From: Candidatus Wolfebacteria bacterium GW2011_GWB1_47_1 | Lineage (GTDB): Bacteria > Patescibacteriota > Minisyncoccia > UBA6257 > UBA9933 | NCBI GenBank assembly: GCA_001029635.1 | Contig: CP011209.1 | Coordinates: 484,970 to 548,969 of the forward strand | DNA length: 64,000 nt | Direction: 5' to 3' | Shown: piece after piece, positions 3,057 to 49,200 of the stretch | Layout: each line of letters begins with the position of its first letter | Numbering within the stretch: position 1 is the first letter of the stretch | Translations under genes and position numbers: made by a program | The notes under the pieces: model-generated | Database searches by the model: none | The model's input: only the letters and a program-made list of their open reading frames with translations | Told to the model about the DNA's origin: nothing

Positions 3057-4085
3057 ATGAAGAACGTAGGCACCATCATTGAACGCGTAACCCATTCCCT
3101 GTCCGCCCGCCAGCGAGAGATCGTTGAGGAGCGTTTTGGGCTCCGTGATAACGAAGAAAAGACCCTCCAGGAATTGGGAGAGCGTAATGGGATTACCCGT
3201 GAGCGCGTCCGCCAGATCGAAGCCGAGGGGCTTCGTTTGGCACGGGAGCATTTTGCTGAGAGCGATGGGCAACAACTTGTTGACCTAGCCAAGAATCGCC
3301 TCGTAACCATGGGCGGTATTCGCAAGGAGAAGGATTTTGTTGCCGATATGCAGACTATTCTCAAGGATGATTCGGTGAACCAGTGCCAGTTGCGATTCTT
3401 ATTCAAGATCGCCGGAGAACCGATGCACTACGGAGAGGATGACGAATTCTACAGCTTCTGGTGTAATGACAAGGCTACCATCAAGAAGGCGACTACTTTT
3501 ATTGAGAAAGCAGTCAAGTTCTTCGGAGGGAAGAAGGAGGAGCTTGTGTTTAAAGGACAGTTTGACCAGTATTTCACACAGCTTGTCGCAACGGCGTCGC
3601 TCGACGTGGCTATTGGCATGAACTACCTCGGTATTTCCAAGAAGTTTAGTAATAACCCATATTCCGATTTTGGTCTTTCCCATTGGGAAGAGATCGCACC
3701 GAAGACGGCGCGCGCAAAGGCCTACTTGATCCTGCGAAAGCATGGCAAGCCGATGCATTTTCGTGATATTGCCCATACGATCAATAACACCGGTTTCGAT
3801 AAAAAGCCGGTCTATGCACAGACTATCCATAATGAACTCATTAAGGACAATCGATTCGTATTAGTAGGACGCGGCATGTACGGTCTGACCGAGCATGGAT
3901 TCTTTCCGGGCACTGCGAAGGATGTCATTAGGCAGATTCTCGTTGACGGAGGACCGTTGGCACAACAGGAAGTTGTGAAAATGGTTTCGGCACAGCGATT
4001 TCTTAAAGAGAATACCATTCTGCTCAACTTGCAGAATAAAAAGCATTTCAAGCGATTAGATAATGGAACGTATCACGTTGCATAA
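3057..4085 (+). CDS. Sigma-70 region 4 domain protein with a C-terminal HARE-HTH-like winged-helix domain
   Basis: N-terminus ARQREIVEERFGL...TLQELGERNGITRERVRQIEAEGLRLAR matches the sigma region-4 HTH. C-terminus PMHFRDIAHTINNTGFDKKPVYAQTIHNELIKDNRFVLVGRGMYGL resembles a HARE-HTH. Architecture is common in CPR genomes. Confidence 0.6.
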   Translation: MKNVGTIIERVTHSLSARQREIVEERFGLRDNEEKTLQELGERNGITRERVRQIEAEGLRLAREHFAESDGQQLVDLAKNRLVTMGGIRKEKDFVADMQTILKDDSVNQCQLRFLFKIAGEPMHYGEDDEFYSFWCNDKATIKKATTFIEKAVKFFGGKKEELVFKGQFDQYFTQLVATASLDVAIGMNYLGISKKFSNNPYSDFGLSHWEEIAPKTARAKAYLILRKHGKPMHFRDIAHTINNTGFDKKPVYAQTIHNELIKDNRFVLVGRGMYGLTEHGFFPGTAKDVIRQILVDGGPLAQQEVVKMVSAQRFLKENTILLNLQNKKHFKRLDNGTYHVA

Positions 4086-5560: not shown

Positions 5561-5613
5561 ATCATTTTAAATAGATTCCTCAGTCGTCTGACAGATGGAA
5601 ATGACAAAAGATA

Positions 5614-7512
5614 ATGAATAATAAAGAAGTCTCAATTTTTGCAAAAACAAATTTTCGCAACCAAAGCGTTAATTTTGGCATCAAGTCAGCTGATCGGCTT
5701 CGTCATATGTATGTCGTCGGCAAGAGCGGTACTGGTAAGACGACCATGATGAAGAATCTGATGATCAATGACATCAAGAATGGCTTCGGTGTTGCCGTGC
5801 TCGATCCCCATGGAGAATTTGTCGAGGAATTGCTTAAGCATGTACCCGAGGATCGCATCAAAGATGTAATCTACGTCAATCCCGCCGATATTGATAACCC
5901 TGTCGGATTTAATCCACTCGAGCGTGTTGGAGAAGAACATGCCCACTTGGTCGCTTCGGCGGTTATGGGTGTATTCCAAAAGATCTGGGTTGATGCCTGG
6001 TCTGCGCGTATGGAGTATATTCTCAATAATACCCTGCTGGCCCTTTTGGAATATCCGGGCACGACGTTATTGAGTATTATGCGCATGCTTGCGGAAAAGG
6101 AATATCGCCAGAAGGTCGTTTCGAATCTTAAGGATCCGGTCATCAAATCATTCTGGGAGAACGAGTTCGCAAAATATACGGACAAGTTTATGACCGAGGC
6201 TATCGCTCCGCTCCAGAACAAGGTCGGACAATTTAGTTCCAATCCAGTCATCCGCAATATTATCGGACAACCAAAGTCTACCATCGACATGCGCAAGGCG
6301 ATGGATGAAGGAAAGATTCTCATATGCAACCTCTCACAAGGCCGACTCGGAGAAGATAACTCGGCATTGCTCGGAGCTATGATCATCACCAAGATCCAGT
6401 TGGCTGCCATGAGTCGTATTGATACTCCTGAAGCGGAACGTCGACCATTCTTTTTGTACATCGACGAGTTCCAAAACTTTTCCACAGGAGCGTTCACCAA
6501 AATATTTGCCGAAGCCCGTAAGTATGGACTCGGTCTTACGCTTGCCCATCAGTACGTTGAGCAGCTTAAAAAGGAGGAAGGTCTCGCCGAGGCGATCGTC
6601 GGAAACATTGGTACCTTGGTATTATTTCGTGTAGGGGCGATCGATGCCGTTTTCTTCGAAAAGGAATTTGAGCCTGAATTTACTCCAGCCGATATGATCG
6701 GCTTGTCAAACAGGCATATTTACCTTAAATTGTTGGTTGACGGTCAGGCGTCTCGGCCCTTTTCAGCAGAAACGTTGCCGCCATATCCAATTCCACAGCC
6801 GAATTTTGAGGATGTTATCATAGCAAATTCCCGCAGACTGTATTCGATGCCGAAACCGCTCGTGGATGAAATGATCGCCAAGGAATATATGGGTTCAGGC
6901 AAGACGTCTATGGAGGATAAGGTCATGCGAAGGGATGAGCGGTCATTGGGATCTACATTAATTCCTCGCGCGCAAGCACCGAGGTCCTTCGGCTCTGGTC
7001 AGGATAAATCCTTCGGCCACCAGCCGGCGGCTCAGAGTAGATCCTTCGGCTCTACTCAGGACAAGCCCCTTGGATCCGCTCAGGACAGGCAGGCATTTGG
7101 CAGAGACCAGGGTAGGTCAGCCGATTCTAGGCCTGTCGCTCATGCGCCTTCGTCGCGCCCTGTCGCGCCCATTAATCGATCTGATGATTCAGGTAAAAAA
7201 GCACCTTTTCATGATTCGACTGCCTTTGAGAAGGTTGTAACCGGTGCCCCTGTGCTCGTAAAACCTGAGGTGGATCGACCGAAACATGTTTATGAAAAGA
7301 AGCCGGTTAATATCGATGACCTAAAAAAAGCGATAGAGGAGACATTGCAAAAACGAAAAGAACCAGTTCTTACCGACAAGTATTTAGGTTCCGTTCAGGA
7401 CGGGCCGGTGCAGCGGCCAAGGAATATTGAGCGCGATACGCAACCCCCTCCTATCGCCTCTCATAGTGATGATAAAGCGGTTGCTGTGCCGGAGAAAGAA
7501 CAGCATACGTAA
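5614..7512 (+). CDS. P-loop ATPase of the TraG/TraD/VirD4 (type IV coupling protein) / FtsK-HerA superfamily, with a low-complexity C-terminal tail
   Basis: Walker A VVGKSGTGKTT, VLDPHGEF, Walker-B-like FFLYIDEFQNF. A conjugative-coupling-protein-like core over about 430 aa. C-terminal 200 aa are a disordered SFGS-QDK repeat tail (about 45-bp DNA period at 6960-7080). Confidence 0.55.
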   Translation: MNNKEVSIFAKTNFRNQSVNFGIKSADRLRHMYVVGKSGTGKTTMMKNLMINDIKNGFGVAVLDPHGEFVEELLKHVPEDRIKDVIYVNPADIDNPVGFNPLERVGEEHAHLVASAVMGVFQKIWVDAWSARMEYILNNTLLALLEYPGTTLLSIMRMLAEKEYRQKVVSNLKDPVIKSFWENEFAKYTDKFMTEAIAPLQNKVGQFSSNPVIRNIIGQPKSTIDMRKAMDEGKILICNLSQGRLGEDNSALLGAMIITKIQLAAMSRIDTPEAERRPFFLYIDEFQNFSTGAFTKIFAEARKYGLGLTLAHQYVEQLKKEEGLAEAIVGNIGTLVLFRVGAIDAVFFEKEFEPEFTPADMIGLSNRHIYLKLLVDGQASRPFSAETLPPYPIPQPNFEDVIIANSRRLYSMPKPLVDEMIAKEYMGSGKTSMEDKVMRRDERSLGSTLIPRAQAPRSFGSGQDKSFGHQPAAQSRSFGSTQDKPLGSAQDRQAFGRDQGRSADSRPVAHAPSSRPVAPINRSDDSGKKAPFHDSTAFEKVVTGAPVLVKPEVDRPKHVYEKKPVNIDDLKKAIEETLQKRKEPVLTDKYLGSVQDGPVQRPRNIERDTQPPPIASHSDDKAVAVPEKEQHT

Positions 7513-25662: not shown

Positions 25663-28146
25663 ATGGCAATGGACAATCAGATACAAAAAGACGAATCCGA
25701 TCAGCACCAGATGATACAAAAGCAGGAAGCTATTCGCCTTGGGTTTTTTGAAAGCATGGATCAGGTTAATCGGGCCATACAGGGGGCAAGTGATCTTGAA
25801 CAGATGCTCGGTGGCGTTTTGGAAAAAGTATTCTCCATCTTTAATTGTGACCGCGCATGGCTTCTTTATCCGTGTGATCCTGATGCCGCATCATTTCGTG
25901 TGCCGATGGAGGTTACTCGACCCGAATATCCGGGCGCCAAAATTTTGAATGTGGATGTACCAATGAACCCGGATGTAGCTCAGAATATGCGTGAGGCGCT
26001 GGTATCTCCCGAACCGGTAGTTTATATTGCCGGTACGGATCGGCCCATTAATAAAGTTACTGCAGAACAATTTGGCGTCCAATCTCAGATATTCACTCCG
26101 GTATATCCCAAAGAGGGAAAGCCTTGGATTTTTGGCATGCATCAGTGCTCATTTCCTCGGGTGTGGACAGAGGAGGAACAACAACTTTTTCAGGAGATAA
26201 GTCGACGACTGGCTGATGGGTTAACCAGTCTATTGGCATATCGTGATATTCAGGAAAAGGAGCGATATTTCCGTGCGTTGTTTTACAACATGCTTACCGG
26301 ACTTGCTCATTGCGAGATGATTTTTAATGACCAAGGAGCTCCTGTTGATTTTCGTTATTTGGACGTCAATCCCGTATTTGAGAAGTTGACCGGACTGAAG
26401 GATGTTGTTGGTAAGTTGGTATCAGAAGTGATCCCGGGTATTAAGGAGAGTGATCCCAAATTGTTTGAAATCTATGGACGCGTAGCTTCGGGCGGCGAAC
26501 CTGAGCAATTTGAGATTTATCTCGAAGCGCTCAAAATATGGTTTTCGATTTCCGTGTTTAGTATGCAGAAAGGATTTTTCACCGCAGTATTCGACAATAT
26601 TACGGAGCAAAAAAATCGAGAATTGCAATTGAGTAAGGCGATGAACGAGCTGAAAAATGTCGTTGATGCATTGCCAAGCATCATATATGTGCTTGATACG
26701 AAATCCAATTTAATTAAATGGAACCGTCGAGCGGAGATAGCGACTGGATATTCAGCCAATGAATTAAAACAAAAGCTTTCTCTTGAGCTTATTGCAGATC
26801 ATGACCAGCCTTCGTTCATTGGAGCGATCAACGATGCGTATGATAAAGAATACGTCGAGGTTGATGCACACCTTGTTAGAAAGGATGGATCAAAACTTCC
26901 TTATCGTTGGTCAGCAGCACCGATGCGCGATGCGCACGGGGCTGATATTGGTATCATTGGCATCGGTTGGGATCTAACCGATCAGATCAAGAGTGCAGCT
27001 AAAATCGCTGCATATCAAGAACAGCAGCGCGTTATCTTGGATTCGGTTCCCGATATCATATGGATGAAGGATGTTAACGGAGTATATCTTTCCGTTAATG
27101 AAGCGTATCTTTCACGTATTGGCAAGCAAAGAGAAGAAATCATCGGAAAGACTGACCTTGATCTTTGGCCTAAAGAATTCGCCGATAAGTATCGAGCTGA
27201 TGATAAGAAAGTCACGGAAAGTGGTTTGCAGAAGCGGATGGAAGAAACCGCCCCTGACCTTAATGGGAATATTATCTGGGTTGAGACAATCAAAATTCCC
27301 GTATATGATGATGCTGGCTTATTACGTGGTATTGCAGGTGTCGCACGCGATATTACCGAGCAGAAGCAGATACGCGAGGCGCTTGAAAAGCAGGAGCTGA
27401 TCAACACGGTCGTTTCAAATAATCTGCCGATCGGCTATGCGATCAACACCATTTCTGACGGGAAGGCCATCTTTATCAATAAAAAGTTTGAAGAGATCTA
27501 TGGATGGCCGCGAGAGACTCTGACGAGCGTGGATGCATTCTTTGAGCATGTGTATCCTAACCCTGAGTTTCGTAAGAAAATAAAGGAGCAGGTAACTATT
27601 GATATCATGAGCGGAGATCCCGTACGTATGGTGTGGGAAAAATTACCTATCGTAAGGCAGTCAGGAGAGACTGCTTACATTACTGCCCGGAATATACCTC
27701 TTACTGAATATGATCTTATGGTCTCTACGGTGCTCGATGTGACTCATCAAGTGAAGGTCGAGAAGGCGTTACGTGAGAGCGAGGGGTTGCAACGGTCGAT
27801 CCTGAATACTATGCCCGAGTTGGTATTCGTTAAGGATACGGAGGGTAGATACATCACTGCCAATAAGGCATGGCTTGCGTTTGTGCATAAAGAACTCGAC
27901 GAGATTATTGGGAAGACGGATCCCGCCATTTTTCCTAAGGAGTACGCGGATACATATCGAGCTGATGATGAGGCGGTTATCAAGACAGGTTCCACAAAGC
28001 GTATCGAGGAAGCGAGCGTCGATGGCGCAGGGGTGACGGCGTGGTTTGAGACAACAAAGGCGCCTTTCTATAACGATGAGAACACAATTGTCGGTATCGT
28101 CGGCATTGCTCGGGACATCACAAGCCAGAAATCGCAACAACAGTAG
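25663..28146 (+). CDS. Multi-PAS/PAC sensory-box protein with no recognisable output domain
   Basis: At least four PAS/PAC repeats with GIARDITEQK-type endings (GVARDITEQKQ, GIARDITSQK). Ends without a kinase, GGDEF or EAL domain. Confidence 0.7.
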   Translation: MAMDNQIQKDESDQHQMIQKQEAIRLGFFESMDQVNRAIQGASDLEQMLGGVLEKVFSIFNCDRAWLLYPCDPDAASFRVPMEVTRPEYPGAKILNVDVPMNPDVAQNMREALVSPEPVVYIAGTDRPINKVTAEQFGVQSQIFTPVYPKEGKPWIFGMHQCSFPRVWTEEEQQLFQEISRRLADGLTSLLAYRDIQEKERYFRALFYNMLTGLAHCEMIFNDQGAPVDFRYLDVNPVFEKLTGLKDVVGKLVSEVIPGIKESDPKLFEIYGRVASGGEPEQFEIYLEALKIWFSISVFSMQKGFFTAVFDNITEQKNRELQLSKAMNELKNVVDALPSIIYVLDTKSNLIKWNRRAEIATGYSANELKQKLSLELIADHDQPSFIGAINDAYDKEYVEVDAHLVRKDGSKLPYRWSAAPMRDAHGADIGIIGIGWDLTDQIKSAAKIAAYQEQQRVILDSVPDIIWMKDVNGVYLSVNEAYLSRIGKQREEIIGKTDLDLWPKEFADKYRADDKKVTESGLQKRMEETAPDLNGNIIWVETIKIPVYDDAGLLRGIAGVARDITEQKQIREALEKQELINTVVSNNLPIGYAINTISDGKAIFINKKFEEIYGWPRETLTSVDAFFEHVYPNPEFRKKIKEQVTIDIMSGDPVRMVWEKLPIVRQSGETAYITARNIPLTEYDLMVSTVLDVTHQVKVEKALRESEGLQRSILNTMPELVFVKDTEGRYITANKAWLAFVHKELDEIIGKTDPAIFPKEYADTYRADDEAVIKTGSTKRIEEASVDGAGVTAWFETTKAPFYNDENTIVGIVGIARDITSQKSQQQ

Positions 28147-28183
28147 AAAGAAAAAACCTTTGATTTTTTGAACATGCTTTCAT

Positions 28184-28882
28184 GTGCTATATATGATGAA
28201 ACGAGCAGTACTTATTTCCGGATATGACGATGTACACATCAAGCCCTTATTAGTGAAGGCTGGTTTTTCTATTGTTGAAACTGACCCTGACCTTGTAATA
28301 AGTTATGGCGGGGATGGCACCTTAATGCGCGCGGAGATTGCATGGCCGGGTATACCGAAGCTAATCATCAAGGGAAGTACTATTTGCAAGTTGTGTAATC
28401 CGCTTCCGAATGAGGAGGTTTTGCGCCGGGTTACCGTAGGTGAATATACAATTCGCGATGTTTGGAAATTAGAGGCGGCCGTTGGCGATGCTGTTTTGAT
28501 TGGTTTGAATGATATTGTTCTTCATAATGAAAATCCGCGACATGCGATCCGATATCGGTTGGATATTTCCGGGCAAGGAGATCTTGGACATGAGATTATT
28601 GGCGATGGAATTGTAGTTGCGACACCATTTGGATCGACTGGCTATTATCGGAGTATTACGCACAGTTTTTTTGAGGTGGGGGTCGGACTTGCGTTCAATA
28701 ATAGCACCGAGCGTTTCGATCACATGGTGCTTCGTGACAATTCCATTATTACGGCTACGATTGTGCGCGGCCCTGCCGCAATCTATGCGGATAATCATAT
28801 GGATGTTCGCGTGTTGCATGAAGGCGATTTGATCACGATTCGCAGATCGGATCAATTCGCACGCATCATTACCGTTGTGTGA
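28184..28882 (+). CDS. nadK: NAD(+) kinase
   Basis: GGDGTLM and DGIVVATPFGSTGYYRS motifs. The start could be 28184, 28193 or 28196. Confidence 0.8.
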   Translation: MLYMMKRAVLISGYDDVHIKPLLVKAGFSIVETDPDLVISYGGDGTLMRAEIAWPGIPKLIIKGSTICKLCNPLPNEEVLRRVTVGEYTIRDVWKLEAAVGDAVLIGLNDIVLHNENPRHAIRYRLDISGQGDLGHEIIGDGIVVATPFGSTGYYRSITHSFFEVGVGLAFNNSTERFDHMVLRDNSIITATIVRGPAAIYADNHMDVRVLHEGDLITIRRSDQFARIITVV

Positions 28883-28920
28883 TCTATGAATATAAAAGTG
28901 GCATAAATCGTTTTTGGTCG

Positions 28921-29156
28921 TTGTGCCCCCGCTAGGTGCCCGCTTCGCTGCACTGCGTTCCGCTTGGGGGCAGGGCGCGCAGAAGAATAATGCGCGCCCT
29001 GCATTCCGTCGCGTTGCACGCTCTCCGTCGGCTGACGGATCGCTAGCAACGACCCAAGTCACAGCTCAATCGGACTGTGCCTTCGGCGTCCGATTCCTAG
29101 GGGTAAATCATAAAACACCCCGTAAGGAGTGTTTTATGATTTGTGCCCCCGCTAGG
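28921..29156. repeat. GC-rich multi-hairpin segment bracketed by 16-bp direct repeats (ttgtgcccccgctagg at 28921-28936 and 29141-29156). Candidate ncRNA or mobile-element remnant.
   Basis: Sharp GC rise versus flanks. Hairpins cagggcgcgca/tgcgcgccctg (28967-29003), cgtc-ggct-gacg, aatcggac/gtccgatt with an internal gccTTCGgc, and a roughly 28-bp stem 29090-29166 (cgattcctaggggtaaatcataaaacac / gtgttttatgatttgtgcccccgctaggaatcg). Confidence 0.5.
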
Positions 29157-29278
29157 AATCGGACCTAGATTGGGAGATTAGAAGTCTCCAGTTCTATCCA
29201 TTGAACTACAGGGGCGGTCAGGTACATTTACTTTTGCAACTATTTCAGTATACTAAGAAAGCAATAAACTGCAACAAA

Positions 29279-29349
29279 CGGAGAGTAGTATAGTGGTAGT
29301 ATGTATGCTTTGGGAGCATATGGTCCGGGTTCGATTCCCGGCTCTCCGA
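29279..29349 (+). tRNA. tRNA-Pro (anticodon UGG)
   Basis: Acceptor CGGAGAG/CUCUCCG, anticodon stem UAUGC/GCAUA, loop UUUGGGA with G37, T-arm CCGGG-UUCGAUU-CCCGG. Confidence 0.75.
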
Positions 29350-29463
29350 CTAAGATAATACACAATCAATAACATATAACCAACAACAGGGTATTAGGCG
29401 GGGGGGGAAGTATTGATTCTGATTGGCAATCTGTGTATACTTGAAAAGCAAATTTGGAAAGCC

Positions 29464-29538
29464 GCCGCGGTAGCTCAGCGGTAGAGCGTTGCCCTGAAGA
29501 GGCAAGCGTCGGGGGTTCAACTCCCTCCCGCGGCACCA
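29464..29538 (+). tRNA. tRNA-Phe (anticodon GAA), CCA encoded
   Basis: Acceptor GCCGCGG/CCGCGGC, D-arm GCUC-AGCGGUA-GAGC, anticodon stem UUGCC/GGCAA, loop CUGAAGA, T-arm GGGGG-UUCAACU-CCCUC, 3' ACCA. Confidence 0.85.
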
Positions 29539-29659
29539 ATAGGGATTTGATTAAACAGAAAGAGGCTTTTGTGAGGAAAGCCTCTTTTTGTTCCCCATTG
29601 ACTTTTCTTGTTTTTTATTACAAAACTAAATTAGTATTATTCCAACTGAGGAGGTTTCA

Positions 29660-30253
29660 ATGAATGTATTCAGGAAAGAACTTCAAGCACTTCTCAAGGC
29701 CGCACGGCGGGAGTCTGCGGTTGGAGGGCGAGCCGCTTTAGATAAGCGGGCTCGCAAGCTTTTCGACATGTACCTCGGAGGAGGGGATATTTATGCGACG
29801 GACGAGTCCGTTTGCGGAGAGCTCCTTCATATAACCGTCGATCCCAAAGGGGTTGCCGTTATGTACCATGTGGGTGGTAGACTCTGGCGCCGGGATGCCG
29901 GCGGTAGGATCTACTACGAGACGTTGGGCGGTCCGGGGAGGTCCTTTAAATTCATGCCGCATTTAGAGGATGATGTTGTTACGGCGGCTGATTTCTTCGC
30001 GGTCGGATTTCCGTATTTGGAAGAACGACTCGCGTTGGTCCCAATGGATGAAGGGACAGTCGCCGTAGTCAAGGGGGACGTTCATCCCATCTTCTCCATT
30101 GACGCCCTCGATCGGGTAACTCCCGACAGCATTCATGACATGCGTATATTCTCGTCCGGAGAACTGGCCGACAAGGTCTGCCTCTTGTTCGAGGAGCTCG
30201 TATCTGACGCAGACGGGGCGTGGGACAGGGTGTTCTACGCCCTCAATTCCTGA
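29660..30253 (+). CDS. Hypothetical protein, GC-rich island gene 1 (paralog of 30376..31059)
   Basis: Good RBS (gaggagg). Shares an F-x-x-YLGGGD / FLGGED block and overall pattern with the next gene. Composition atypical for the window. Confidence 0.5.
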   Translation: MNVFRKELQALLKAARRESAVGGRAALDKRARKLFDMYLGGGDIYATDESVCGELLHITVDPKGVAVMYHVGGRLWRRDAGGRIYYETLGGPGRSFKFMPHLEDDVVTAADFFAVGFPYLEERLALVPMDEGTVAVVKGDVHPIFSIDALDRVTPDSIHDMRIFSSGELADKVCLLFEELVSDADGAWDRVFYALNS

Positions 30254-30269
30254 CCTGCGTTGGAAATGT

Positions 30270-30305
30270 GAACAAACCCCGACACCGTAAGGTGTCGGGC
30301 CTTTT
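30270..30305 (+). terminator. Rho-independent terminator (ccccgacaccgtaaggtgtcgggcctttt)
   Basis: Perfect hairpin plus T-run after the 29660..30253 gene. Confidence 0.7.
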
Positions 30306-30375
30306 AATTGACTTTACCATCTTTTTATTGCAAGAATAGACCCAGTACTATTTCACGGCATTTCAAGGGAGGGTA

Positions 30376-31059
30376 ATGATGTCGCGCACACAATTAAGAG
30401 ACTTGTTGATTTCGGCTTTGTCGTTCAGTGACAGCAAAGGAGCCAAACTTTGGGAGAAGCATCTTGTCACTGGCTTCGATGCATTTTTGGGCGGAGAGGA
30501 CGTCTTTGACGCCGCCTACAACGATCGACCAGTCGCATACATGCTCGCGACCATAGTTGAGCGTTCATCTGTTCGTTTTGCCATATACTGCGGAGGATCG
30601 TTCCATGCCGATACGATTTTAGCTGACAGGGTCGGTTATGTGATCACCGGCAAGGGTCTTTCCGTTCGCTATCTGCGAGGAGACCATGAGGAGGTCCGGG
30701 GTGAAATAGCCGACGGCTATCATGCGGCACTCGATCATTTTGGAGCTGATGCATTCCGGGAAATGTTCAACAAGATGATTCTTTATAGCGCCATAAATGA
30801 TGCGTCCCTGCTTGATGTCGATCGGGGCGTTGTGGAGAGTATCCTCATAGTTCCGGGTGGTGTTATAAGCGATCCACTACGGCTTGAGGTGCCTCGCGTG
30901 AGTCGCTTGCGGTCTGGAACGTACTACGACCTGCGCAGCTACGATAACCGCGAAGACCTGGTTAACGGTGTCTATGGGGCGTGGACGGCTCTTGTCTCGT
31001 CTCGGGAACAGGACTGGGCTCGGTTTCTCGAGCTTATCCAGCCTGTCTTTGGCGACTAG
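30376..31059 (+). CDS. Hypothetical protein, GC-rich island gene 2 (paralog of 29660..30253)
   Basis: RBS gggaggg. Aligns loosely with island gene 1. No known motif. Confidence 0.5.
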   Translation: MMSRTQLRDLLISALSFSDSKGAKLWEKHLVTGFDAFLGGEDVFDAAYNDRPVAYMLATIVERSSVRFAIYCGGSFHADTILADRVGYVITGKGLSVRYLRGDHEEVRGEIADGYHAALDHFGADAFREMFNKMILYSAINDASLLDVDRGVVESILIVPGGVISDPLRLEVPRVSRLRSGTYYDLRSYDNREDLVNGVYGAWTALVSSREQDWARFLELIQPVFGD

Positions 31060-46287: not shown

Positions 46288-49200
46288 ATGAATTTCAACG
46301 CCATTAAATTGAAAGTTGCCTCACCGGAAGAGATCCTAAAGTGGTCCCATGGTGAGATCACCAAACCGGAAACGATCAACTACCGGACCCAGCGTCCGGA
46401 AAAGGATGGTCTGTTTTCCGAGCGTATCTTCGGACCGACGAAAGATTATGAGTGCTATTGCGGAAAGTACCGACGCGTTCGCTATAAAGGACTTACCTGT
46501 GATAAGTGTGGTGTGGAAGTGACTCATTCCAGCGTTCGCCGAGAGCGCATGGGGCATATTTCGCTTGCCGCTCCCGTCGCGCATATTTGGTTCTTGAAGG
46601 TTGTTCCGTCCCGCTTGTCCCTCTTTTTGGACATCCCGGTACAAAAGCTCGAAAAGGTTGTGTACTACGCAGCCTATGTCATCACGCACGTCAACGACGA
46701 CGCTCGCAAGCGCGTCTTGAAGGAGCTCGAAGACGAAGTGAAGATGAAGAAGAAGGAGTTTGAGGATAACAAGGATAAGGCAAAACTTGTTGAAGAAAAG
46801 GCAGAACAGATCAAGAAGCAGTTAAAGTCCTTAAAGGAAGGGCAGATTCTTGCCGAAGCAGAATACTTTGAATTGTCCCGCAAATACGGCGATGTGCTCG
46901 AAGCACTTTCTGGTGCGGGAGCCGTACGCCAGTTGCTCGAAAAGATCGATCTGAAGAAGTTTCTTGTTCAAACCGAAAAGGAATTGGAGGAGACTGGAGA
47001 TGAGGGTCAGAAAAAGAAGTTGCTTATGCGCTTGCGCTTGATCCATGCCTTCACTCGACACCAGATGCGTCCCGAGTGGATGGTCATGACTCAATTGCCG
47101 GTATTGCCGCCTGAAATCCGACCGATGGTTGCGCTCGACGGAGGCCGTTATGCGACTTCCGACTTGAATGATTTATATCGTCGTGTTATCAACCGCAACA
47201 ATCGCTTGAAGAAGCTCATGGAGTTGCATGCACCGGAAATCATTGTGGTCAACGAAAAGCGCATGCTTCAGGAAGCCGTCGACGCATTGATCGACAACGC
47301 TAGCCGTGGAGGCAGTGCTGTGCAATTGTCCGCCCAGAAGCGGCCGTTGCGCTCGCTCGCTGATATTTTGAAGGGTAAGCAGGGACGCTTCCGACAGAAC
47401 TTGCTCGGAAAGCGCGTAGACTATTCCGGACGTTCCGTTATTATCGTCGGACCGGAATTGCCGTTGAACTGCTGTGGCTTGCCGAAGAAGATGGCCTTGG
47501 AACTCTTTAAGCCGTTTGTCATTAGCCGCATTATTAGCGACGGACTTGCACATACCATCAAGAATGCGACTCGATTGATTGAGCAGGCACCTGCAGAAGT
47601 GTGGGCGATCCTCGAAGAGGTCATTAAAGATAAGAAGGTATTATTGAACCGTGCGCCGACATTGCACCGCTTGGGTATCCAGGCCTTTAAGCCGGTATTG
47701 CACGAAGAACTTGCGATCAAGATTCCGCCGATGGTATGTTCTGCTTTTAACGCAGACTTCGATGGAGACCAAATGGCTGTTCACTTGCCGTTGTCCGATG
47801 AAGCTCAGAAGGAAGCGACCGAGCTTATGCTCGCAAGTCGTAATATTTTGAAGCCGGCGGATGGAGCCCCTGTGGCATCACCGTCGCTCGACATCGTGTT
47901 GGGCTGCTACTATCTGACGAGCATCATCGATGATGCGAAGGGAGTGGGACATATATTTTCATCCGCTGATGAAGCGAAGATTGCTTTTGAAGCTGGTTAT
48001 GTTGCCATTAACGCACCGGTCAAGGTATTGATGGGTAAAGGAAATATCGTAGAGACTAGCGTAGGACGACTCATGTTTAATGAGGCATTACCGGAGAACT
48101 TCGGATTTGTAAATGCCGTCATGAATAAGAAGGGATTGCAGAAAGTCGTGTCTACCGTTACCAGTGAATATGGTATCGATAACACATGGACTGTACTCGA
48201 TTCCATTAAGGAACTTGGATTCAAGTATGCGACATTGTCCGCCACTACGTGGGCGATGGCTGATCTGATTATCCCGACTGAAAAGAAGGGTATTCTTGCT
48301 CAAGCCGAGAAGGAGGTTGATGTTATTGAAAACCAGTATGAAGAAGGGTTCCTGACCACTGAAGAGCGCCGTGAGCGTGTTATCGAGATTTGGGAAGACA
48401 CCACAAAAAAGTTGTCCGAGGTTGTCCCGAACGCCTTGAAAGCTGCAGGACCTTCGAACTCCGTGTTCTCGATTGTGGATTCCGGATCTCGCGGATCATG
48501 GGCACAGCCGATGCAGATGGTTGGTATGAAAGGTTTGGTGCAGAACCCGCAAGGGGATATCATTGAGCTCCCGATCAAGTCCTCCTACAAGGAAGGGCTG
48601 AACGTGCTTGAATTCTTCATCAACTCGCACGGTGCGCGTAAAGGTTTGACCGATACCGCACTTAAGACCGCAGAAGCAGGATACCTGACGCGTAAACTAG
48701 TCGACGTGTCCCAGAACCTGATCATTCGTGAGGAGGATTGTAAGACCAGTGAAGGAGTCGATATGTATCGTTCCGACGGGGATGAATATGGATATGCATT
48801 CGGAACCCGCTTGTATAGCCGAACCGTCCTTGAGGATGTAAAAGTTGGCAACAAAGTGATCGTGAAGGCGGGCGATAGCGTTACCCGCGAAGCAGCCGAA
48901 GCGATTAATAATGAACCAAAAATTGAGAAGGTTCGATTGCGTTCTCCGTTACGTTGTAAAACGCTCTACGGCGTTTGCTCGAAGTGCTATGGTTACGACT
49001 TGGGTCGCGGCGAAATGATCAAGAGTGGCGAAGCCATCGGTGTCATCGCCGCACAGTCCATCGGAGAGCCGGGAACCCAGCTCACGCTCCGCACCTTCCA
49101 CAAGGGAGGTATTGCGGGGGTTGATATCACGCACGGTTTGCCGCGCGTCCAGGAAATCTTCGAGTGTCGCGTGCCAAAAGGTAAAGCGATCCTCGCTGAA

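Follow-up and report, generated by a model that had tools for sequence, protein, structure and literature searches.

A tRNA-Arg gene of a Wolfebacteria genome carries at its 3' end a small, hairpin-dense module that shares its architecture with modules downstream of other Patescibacteria tRNA genes

The stretch of DNA analyzed here, 64,000 nt of the genome of Candidatus Wolfebacteria bacterium GW2011_GWB1_47_1 (contig CP011209.1, positions 484,970 to 548,969; hereafter the window), contains a GC-rich, hairpin-dense segment between the NAD kinase gene nadK and a minus-strand tRNA-Arg gene (Table 1). The segment is bounded by two exact copies of the 16-mer TTGTGCCCCCGCTAGG (28921-28936 and 29141-29156), which are separated by 204 bp, as confirmed by blastn, while the chance expectation for a given 16-mer pair in a 700-bp region is, by simple arithmetic, about 6e-5. 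The GC content, taken over 100 nt at a time, is 60-65% across 28900-29100, compared to a mean of 47.7% for the whole window, and the predicted fold is far more stable than that of shuffled sequences on either strand (z = -8.5 for the plus strand and -9.0 for the minus strand; 0 of 200 shuffles equal). These observations bear out a previous reading of the same DNA made from the sequence only (the sequence-only reading), which had noticed the direct repeat of 16 bp, the abrupt rise in GC content, and the wealth of hairpins. Every hairpin that it listed was recovered, namely, a perfect 12-bp hairpin (28970-28981/28991-29002), a 17-bp hairpin (29105-29121/29126-29142), a hairpin with GCC-UUCG-GC (29079-29087) in its loop (29068-29075/29088-29095), and a 16-bp pairing (29088-29103/29149-29164) that, together with the 17-bp hairpin, makes a long stem whose 5' arm overlaps the 3' arm of the GCC-UUCG-GC hairpin.

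The sequence-only reading had, however, placed the segment next to tRNA-Pro and overlooked the tRNA-Arg gene that is its actual right neighbor. The right-hand repeat copy consists of the last 13 nt of tRNA-Arg followed by 3 nt of trailer. Arm B of the segment repeats the tRNA 3' half in inverted orientation. The long stem, correctly noticed but not recognized for what it is, therefore represents the tRNA-Arg 3' half paired with this inverted copy and capped by the terminator hairpin. The segment is thus a ~220-bp non-coding module at the 3' end of tRNA-Arg, and what had appeared as an unknown GC-rich RNA next to tRNA-Pro acquires a defined anatomy centered on the overlooked gene.

Table 1. Features of the interval between nadK and tRNA-Arg, in window positions
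Feature	Position	Strand	Description or evidence
nadK (NAD kinase)	28184..28882	+	Left neighbor; Pfam PF20143, homologues
Spacer between nadK and copy A	28883..28920		A-tract and T-tract (ATAAAAG...TTTTT), no stem
Repeat copy A	28921..28936	-	tRNA-Arg nt 60-72 plus CAA; 38 nt after nadK stop
Variable region H1 plus GGGGGCA (28966-28972)	28937..28972		
Hairpin H2	28970..29002		Perfect GC-rich 12-bp stem, 9-nt loop
Hairpin H3	29011..29054		Outer stem CGTTGC/GCAACG, inner stem CCGTC-GGCT-GACGG
Hairpin H4	29068..29095		AATCGGAC/GTCCGATT, T-loop sequence in both orientations; 12-nt loop with GCC-UUCG-GC
Arm B	29088..29103	+	tRNA-Arg 3' half, inverted: nt 52-64 without mismatch, followed by GGG
Terminator-like hairpin	29105..29142		Just past the tRNA-Arg 3' end; 17-bp arms, 4-nt loop, A/T-rich tracts on both sides
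Repeat copy C	29141..29156	-	tRNA nt 60-72 (3' strands of T-stem and acceptor, then the discriminator), followed by CAA trailer
tRNA-Arg(UCU) gene	29144..29215	-	ARAGORN (anticodon TCT; start of the interval 29143/29144); Rfam RF00005 tRNA model, 63.4 bits; 3' end is the right-hand repeat

Read in the tRNA-sense direction (minus strand), the order is tRNA-Arg, the trailer CAA, the 17-bp hairpin, the antisense copy, the core, the distal sense copy, the spacer, and the nadK stop codon. Counted in nucleotides downstream of the tRNA (dn), the antisense copy of nt 52-64 lies at dn 44-56 and the sense copy of nt 60-72 at dn 208-220, and the 151-nt, GC-rich core presents hairpins H4, H3, H2, and H1 in this direction. 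The T-loop of tRNA-Arg(UCU) reads UCCGAUU, with C at position 55, where U is near-universal, and all tRNA-derived fragments within the module bear this C55 variant. Several of these fragments pair with one another: GTCCGATT is a sense T-loop piece inside the core that makes H4 with the antisense arm; arm B has two possible partners, 29149-29164 within the tRNA gene and repeat copy A; and the piece 28966-28972 (on the plus strand GGGGGCA, which has the sense sequence of the acceptor 3' strand; TGCCCCC in the tRNA direction) is an antisense acceptor piece that pairs with TGCCCCC (28924-28930) of copy A. Both the inverted arms (28924-28936 versus 29096-29103) and the 16-bp duplication copy the tRNA end, and the ends of the element are indistinguishable from its target. 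The terminator-like hairpin pairs fully on the minus strand, with one G-U pair, and was not called by a consensus terminator scan. On the other side, the 229-aa form of NadK was matched exactly, the start codon of the 232-aa open reading frame (ORF) being wrong, and its homologues are from Patescibacteria (candidate phyla radiation). Since nadK lacks a terminator of its own ahead of the module, the plus strand of the module probably forms part of the nadK 3' untranslated region.

Comparison of the same site in seven related contigs, whose nadK genes are 72-78% identical to that of the window (75-78% in the five described next), revealed empty, filled, and truncated states; one contig from a groundwater metagenome (L001) is identical to the window. 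The site is empty in L002 and L004, where nadK is followed by a 38-48-bp terminator and then directly by tRNA-Arg. L006 carries a homologous module adjoining tRNA-Arg (blastn, 85.6% over 180 bp, E=8e-51), and L129 carries one 15 nt past nadK, its contig ending within the module (homology of the L006 and L129 modules by nhmmer, E=6.6e-19). In L128, the sister of L006, only H4 and the inverted arm remain, fused to the nadK stop, which makes it a deletion derivative. The C55 T-loop is common to the window, L004, and L006 and is not found in L002. In a tree of nadK, the module-filled genomes do not form one clade.

Individual parts of the module could be followed through these relatives. H4 is kept in L006 and L128, and the L006 homologue of arm B is 19/19 complementary. 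Four inner pairs of H3 differ in L006 (one double change and three one-sided transitions), H2 shows one C-C mismatch each in L006 and in L129, and the H1 region is a 12-bp hairpin in L129. The L006 counterpart of the antisense acceptor piece is an antisense copy of tRNA nt 64-72 at dn 161-169. A 17-codon ORF (MRALHSVALHALRRLTDR; window 28990-29043), which begins at the edge of the H2 loop and shares start and stop with L006, is probably not coding, as judged from its non-conservative substitutions. Repeat copy A occupies the position at which the tRNA ends in relatives and would therefore represent the displaced original 3' end of tRNA-Arg. Likewise, the spacer looks like the decayed original nadK/tRNA-Arg terminator, because the spacers of the window and L129 keep A- and T-tracts without a stem when the sequences are set against L129, L002, and L004. 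Overall, module identity amounts to 76-86%, far above the 46% (range, 41-51%) found at nadK third codon positions, so that the module appears to be either constrained or recently exchanged. The sequence-only reading had proposed a search of related genomes and had considered that a lack of both transcription and conservation would suggest a decaying remnant; both empty sites and conserved modules were seen, and with such identities in three related lineages this explanation does not apply.

The gap between nadK and tRNA-Arg is an insertion hotspot. In L006, a complete diversity-generating retroelement (DGR), absent from the window, lies between nadK and the module (L006:2603-5368) and comprises a target gene with variable repeat (3296-3413), a template repeat (3792-3909), bAvd, and a frameshifted reverse transcriptase. 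The module itself is not a template/variable repeat of this DGR, as the pair 3296-3413/3792-3909 is separate from the module at 5569-5757 and the window has no second copy. A GC-rich, hairpin-dense stretch found just 3' of recR at the end of contig L005 (L005:1-152) may represent a copy of the module at another locus of a relative and hints that cores might occur away from tRNA genes as well; at the corresponding place downstream of recR, L002 carries a long inverted repeat of another kind.

Searches for known RNAs and genes gave no match to the module. As had been suggested, Rfam (version 15) was searched; over the whole window it returned only tRNAs at the gathering score, and in sensitive mode over 28000-30000 it gave nothing credible over 28937-29103 at E<=10, the other hits being tRNAs and spurious microRNA-type hairpins. 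Sensitive searches of eight other module-bearing loci likewise revealed no known family beyond tRNAs. No covariance model of the known RNA families (6S, SRP, tmRNA, RNase P, group I intron, ribozymes, riboswitches) was matched, and ARAGORN found no tmRNA in the window, so that the other proposal of the sequence-only reading, a small stable RNA or riboregulator, is not supported for known classes such as 6S, SRP, tmRNA, or RNase P; a new structured RNA is treated below as the main rival. The smallest known tRNA introns are similar in size to the 204-nt GC-rich insert. A group I intron in the tRNA was nevertheless rejected, since neither strand matched in Rfam and no splicing is needed to obtain a complete tRNA. 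The only ORFs spanning the segment result from its GC content and lack homologues (0 protein database matches for the 84-aa pseudo-ORF). No integrase or recombinase gene lies inside the 204-bp insert, whose neighbors are nadK and tRNAs. Exact-pattern scans of viral contigs and metagenomes with blocks of the insert gave 0 matches, and literature searches for such modules found no description.

Modules of the same kind were found at other tRNA genes. A genome-collection scan with a pattern from the tRNA-Arg 3' half, which proved broad, gave at least 120 loci from many phyla, and a family set of 48 Patescibacteria sequences (the window plus 47 fetched loci) was gathered around tRNA-Arg genes. Copies of the tRNA 3' half were scored within 250 nt downstream of the tRNA-Arg genes, the upstream side serving as the control. 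Among the matches listed, to which all counts in this paragraph refer, a downstream copy in antisense orientation was found at 8 of the 34 Patescibacteria loci and one in sense orientation at 9 (upstream, 1/34 and 0/34), while the corresponding values for other phyla were 1/61 and 1/61 (upstream, 0/61 and 0/61), the sole exception outside Patescibacteria being an unclassified low-GC genome. When all 124 tRNA genes (21 anticodon types) of the 48 sequences were considered, 23 antisense and 33 sense copies lay downstream and 2 and 8, respectively, upstream. A sense/antisense/sense architecture with covarying hairpins, in some loci in tandem arrays, follows approximately 20-25% of the tRNA genes in the 48 Patescibacteria sequences and is almost absent from other phyla.

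The order of elements, i.e., tRNA, hairpin, antisense copy, core, sense copy, and original flank, is the same at Arg, His, Lys, Val, Leu, and Ser genes, and the window module conforms to it from the tRNA to the sense copy. A terminator hairpin after the tRNA is usual and present in most loci; the antisense copy covers nt ~72 to 52, the structured core is 60-150 nt long, and the sense copy starts from T-loop nt 56-61. A small hairpin of 9 bp interrupts the antisense arm of many modules where acceptor and T-stem meet. The sense repeat extends 2-6 nt beyond the tRNA end into the genomic trailer and never includes CCA, indicating that the duplication was made at the DNA level and eliminating a cDNA of the mature tRNA as its source. 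Without exception, the arms agree with the tRNA beside them, down to the rare C55 T-loop in the clade of the window. Tandem arrays were found in L051, with two different modules at tRNA-Arg, and in L109, with two identical 220-bp units at tRNA-Leu; paralogous cores occur at different tRNAs of one genome in L009 (His/Leu) and L045 (Arg/Lys), with arms that fit their own tRNA. The tRNA-Ser module of L036 ends with a Val-type T-loop piece, as found in the near-identical tRNA-Val module of L110, and then has its own Ser repeat. No repeat partner more than 300 bp away was found in any sampled Patescibacteria locus, which argues that the modules are not trimmed islands. In addition, a palindrome, CCTGCCTGCCGG(C/T)AGGCAGG, recurs in or next to the modules of L045, L036, L106, L109, and L026, its hosts being several Saccharibacteria genomes and one Jorgensenbacteria genome; it may constitute a separate small repeat family.

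The hairpins are under selection, seen as compensatory changes. In the small hairpin, compared across nine loci and five tRNA types, 100% of the cells were paired and double changes occurred in 9/9 pairs, values that no shuffle reached, with 0 G-U pairs in 80 cells. The two within-genome core pairs (L009 His/Leu and L045 Arg/Lys) showed four compensatory pairs each. Moreover, the tRNA-sense strand folded more stably in 21 of the 22 cores (mean difference, -4.6 kcal/mol; binomial p = 1e-5), as it did in the window (-74.3 versus -68.7 kcal/mol), while upstream and far-downstream control flanks split approximately 50:50. The only exception was the L006 core, which has A-C mismatches on its tRNA-sense strand; its G-U pairs on the plus strand probably reflect decay. 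An RNA made from the plus strand, to which these G-U pairs might have pointed, was discarded because L006 stands alone against the bias.

The reading that we favor, at about even odds, is that of a small insertion module that is non-autonomous and site specific and makes a copy of the tRNA it targets. Mobility is suggested by the tandem arrays, the paralogous cores at different tRNAs, and the Val-type piece of L036. The module would enter by a site-specific DNA event with a presumed junction in the T-loop; this event would duplicate the sequence that begins in the T-loop and ends a few bases beyond the tRNA, or swap it for an identical copy, such that the tRNA stays intact. Repeat copy C would then be the regenerated tRNA 3' end, and the old end would be left behind as the distal repeat. 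The antisense arm could pair with either sense copy, forming a 13-20-bp helix that would mimic the acceptor/T-stem "top half" of the target tRNA. As the antisense arm is matched to the target and the covarying hairpins are strand biased, a folded single strand (DNA or RNA) is suggested as the active form; in tRNA-sense polarity, it may be the form recognized by the enzyme, which is not encoded in the module. For the tRNA-sense strand, the predicted excision junction is ...GCGAAGCGGGCA joined to CCTAGCGGGGGCACAA, then ATCATAAAAC.... The sequence-only reading came close in proposing a miniature insertion that had duplicated 16 bp of its target, as empty sites in relatives and modules of the same kind at many tRNAs would suggest, although without the tRNA-Arg gene the repeat could not be seen as an att-like duplication of a tRNA end.

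Several observations weigh against this reading. No recombinase, transposase, or reverse transcriptase was found linked to the module, nor was an autonomous relative, and blastn detected no second copy in the 64-kb window; the one possible second-locus copy, L005 44-140, resembles the H3-H4 part only weakly (nhmmer E=3.7e-5; z=4.6). Multiple copies within a genome were seen in L009, L045, and L109, not in the window. The antisense arm fits the local tRNA even where related cores lie at different tRNAs, which cut-and-paste transposition leaves unexplained. If the module was vertically inherited in the window's clade, its 76-86% conservation together with the perfect 16-mer suggests a function rather than selfish DNA. 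The link between the window and the wider family is also imperfect: 43 of the 48 family-set sequences came from a single tRNA-Arg-centered pattern scan, among the matches listed; the window core is longer and more GC-rich than those of other members; its sequence likeness to modules outside its own genus is confined to short motifs; and the small covarying hairpin, present in nine other modules, is absent from the window and L006 modules. The window module belongs to a distinct subfamily.

The main rival, to which we attach a smaller yet appreciable likelihood, is a structured RNA with a function linked to the tRNA gene; its transcription would follow the direction of the tRNA, either through read-through or because it forms the spacer of an operon. 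The antisense arm and distal sense copy of this RNA would pair to mimic the acceptor/T-stem helix of the tRNA. Enzymes that process or target tRNAs could meet it as a decoy or as a substrate, or it could regulate in cis by competing with tRNA folding. Such an RNA would account for conservation far above the neutral expectation, for the compensatory changes, for the preference of nearly all cores for the tRNA-sense strand, and for arms that always fit the adjacent tRNA; in L112, moreover, the module is the spacer between tRNA-Arg and tRNA-Val and would be co-transcribed with them. However, most modules are preceded by a strong hairpin of terminator type, with its A and T tracts, and leave no room for a promoter, no Rfam family was matched, and the lack of any G-U pair in the small hairpin as well as the A-C mismatches on the tRNA-sense strand of L006 also weigh against it. 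Nor do a site that is filled, empty, or truncated among close relatives, identical tandem copies (L109), or a module bearing a piece of the T-loop of another tRNA fit this explanation well.

Two further explanations dispense with a small mobile module. A local replication error, in which template switching at the tRNA terminator hairpin (fold-back synthesis) yields a direct-inverted-direct triplication without any mobile element, would readily produce the sense-antisense-sense order centered on a palindromic terminator, arms that match the local tRNA variant down to the C55 T-loop, and the several nested sense and antisense fragments of the window module. We nevertheless regard it as improbable, since homologous cores recur at different tRNAs and in different genomes while empty sites contain nothing comparable, selection acts on the core hairpins, and terminators on the two sides of a module, where both exist, are unrelated in sequence. 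Still less credence is due to a deletion scar, i.e., what is left of a large element with an integrase, such as a prophage, plasmid, or island, once seated in tRNA-Arg and later deprived of its interior. Integration by tyrosine integrases classically leaves a direct repeat of the tRNA 3' end that starts in the T-loop or next to it and extends beyond the gene. Such a repeat is present here, but a scar accounts for this direct repeat only. An inverted tRNA copy and conserved cores are unexpected in a scar, no integrase fragment was found and the ORFs of the segment are GC-driven and without homologues, modules are equally small at more than 20 tRNA genes, the sampled Patescibacteria loci contain no kilobase-scale repeat-bounded islands, and the pattern scans of viral contigs were without a match.

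At the level of the family, it is possible, although we advance it only tentatively, that the modules form an undescribed class of miniature elements at Patescibacteria tRNA 3' ends or, alternatively, a new RNA family mimicking the tRNA top half, the window segment being a member either way. As a class of elements, they would regenerate the tRNA end, carry a target-matched arm and a hairpin core, move between tRNAs while re-copying the target, and stack in arrays.

Known systems share some of these properties. Williams reportedly described, in Nucleic Acids Research in 2002, T-loop and 3'-end sublocations of integration into tRNA genes. Like integrative elements that target tRNA genes (tyrosine integrases with attL/attR), the insert restores the tRNA 3' end, leaves the displaced end as a direct repeat, and is missing from empty sites in relatives; of the hallmarks of such elements, the tRNA-end repeat with an intact tRNA and the empty site were thus found, and an internal integrase was not. 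In contrast to these elements, the module is only ~220 bp long, has no integrase and no genes, contains an inverted target copy and a conserved hairpin core, has arms re-matched to each tRNA, and is not seen in large versions. MITEs (miniature transposable elements with inverted repeats), REP/BIME repeats, IS200/IS605-derived palindromes, and CIMEs (cis-mobilizable elements that integrative elements leave behind) receive their enzyme in trans. They resemble the module in being small, non-coding, hairpin-dense, intergenic, located near terminators, and variable between relatives. Unlike in MITE- or REP-type repeats, however, the inverted arms copy the 3' half of the neighboring tRNA instead of being element-specific ends, and insertion is bound to one position of tRNA genes.

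Another parallel is offered by the integron attC site and the attP hairpin of phage CTX, in which, by analogy, two inverted copies of a site fold into a mimic of the double-stranded target and function would likewise be strand specific, with arrays built by repeated insertion; the module junction (T55/C56 region) does not, however, match the attC core site. Casposons insert site specifically in the 3'-distal part of tRNA genes (tRNA-Leu), with a target duplication of 14 bp and up to 35 bp, and form tandem arrays parted by the shared duplication (PMC4779613). The arrays in L051 and L109 are reminiscent of these, but casposons measure kilobases and possess Cas1, PolB, and terminal inverted repeats, all of which the module lacks, and the 204-bp insert is too small for genes. 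Finally, tRNA-like RNA domains (the tmRNA domain, YrlA, and viral tRNA-like structures) also use a helix of acceptor/T-stem sequence to close a larger structured RNA, whereas in the module the T-loop is paired or replaced and no tmRNA or tRNA-like model is matched.

If correct, these interpretations imply that a sizeable fraction of the tRNA genes in a very large and poorly understood phylum carry small structured modules that copy the tRNA's own 3' half in both orientations. This would reveal either insertion that reads or copies its target, with relevance for the evolution of site-specific, guided integration, or a new tRNA-linked RNA; a class of elements, in particular, would imply an insertion mechanism that copies, or is guided by, its target. 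In practical terms, the modules create tRNA-end fragments, long palindromes, and contig breaks, and they can mislead tRNA annotation, the prediction of prophages and att sites, and metagenome assembly.

Some observations concern the surroundings of the module. Six of eight related contigs (L003, L004, L005, L007, L128, and L129) end in or just past the tRNA cluster 3' of nadK, those of L128 and L129 inside the module region, which suggests that palindromes and repeats at this cluster break short-read assemblies. Between tRNA-Phe and tRNA-His, the window harbors two GC-rich (54-60%) genes of 197 and 227 aa (29660-31059) without a Pfam match, which are weak paralogues of each other (28% identity over 71 aa, E=3e-4); since L002 has other genes in the same tRNA-bounded slots, the whole tRNA cluster appears to be a variable region. 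A 15-nt match to the tRNA-Pro 3' end, found inside rpoC at the conserved motif IGEPGTQ (window 49060-49075), was attributed to chance, showing that 15-mers can recur by chance in 64 kb. In L002, a complete tRNA-Pro(TGG) gene (7016-7087) is nested in a second, disrupted tRNA-Pro (L002:6960-7140). The outer gene is split after approximately nt 43 by the inner one, and its T-loop is broken right after GGTTC by a small hairpin (TCCGCCAACCGGCGGA), at the same T-loop position as the module junctions.

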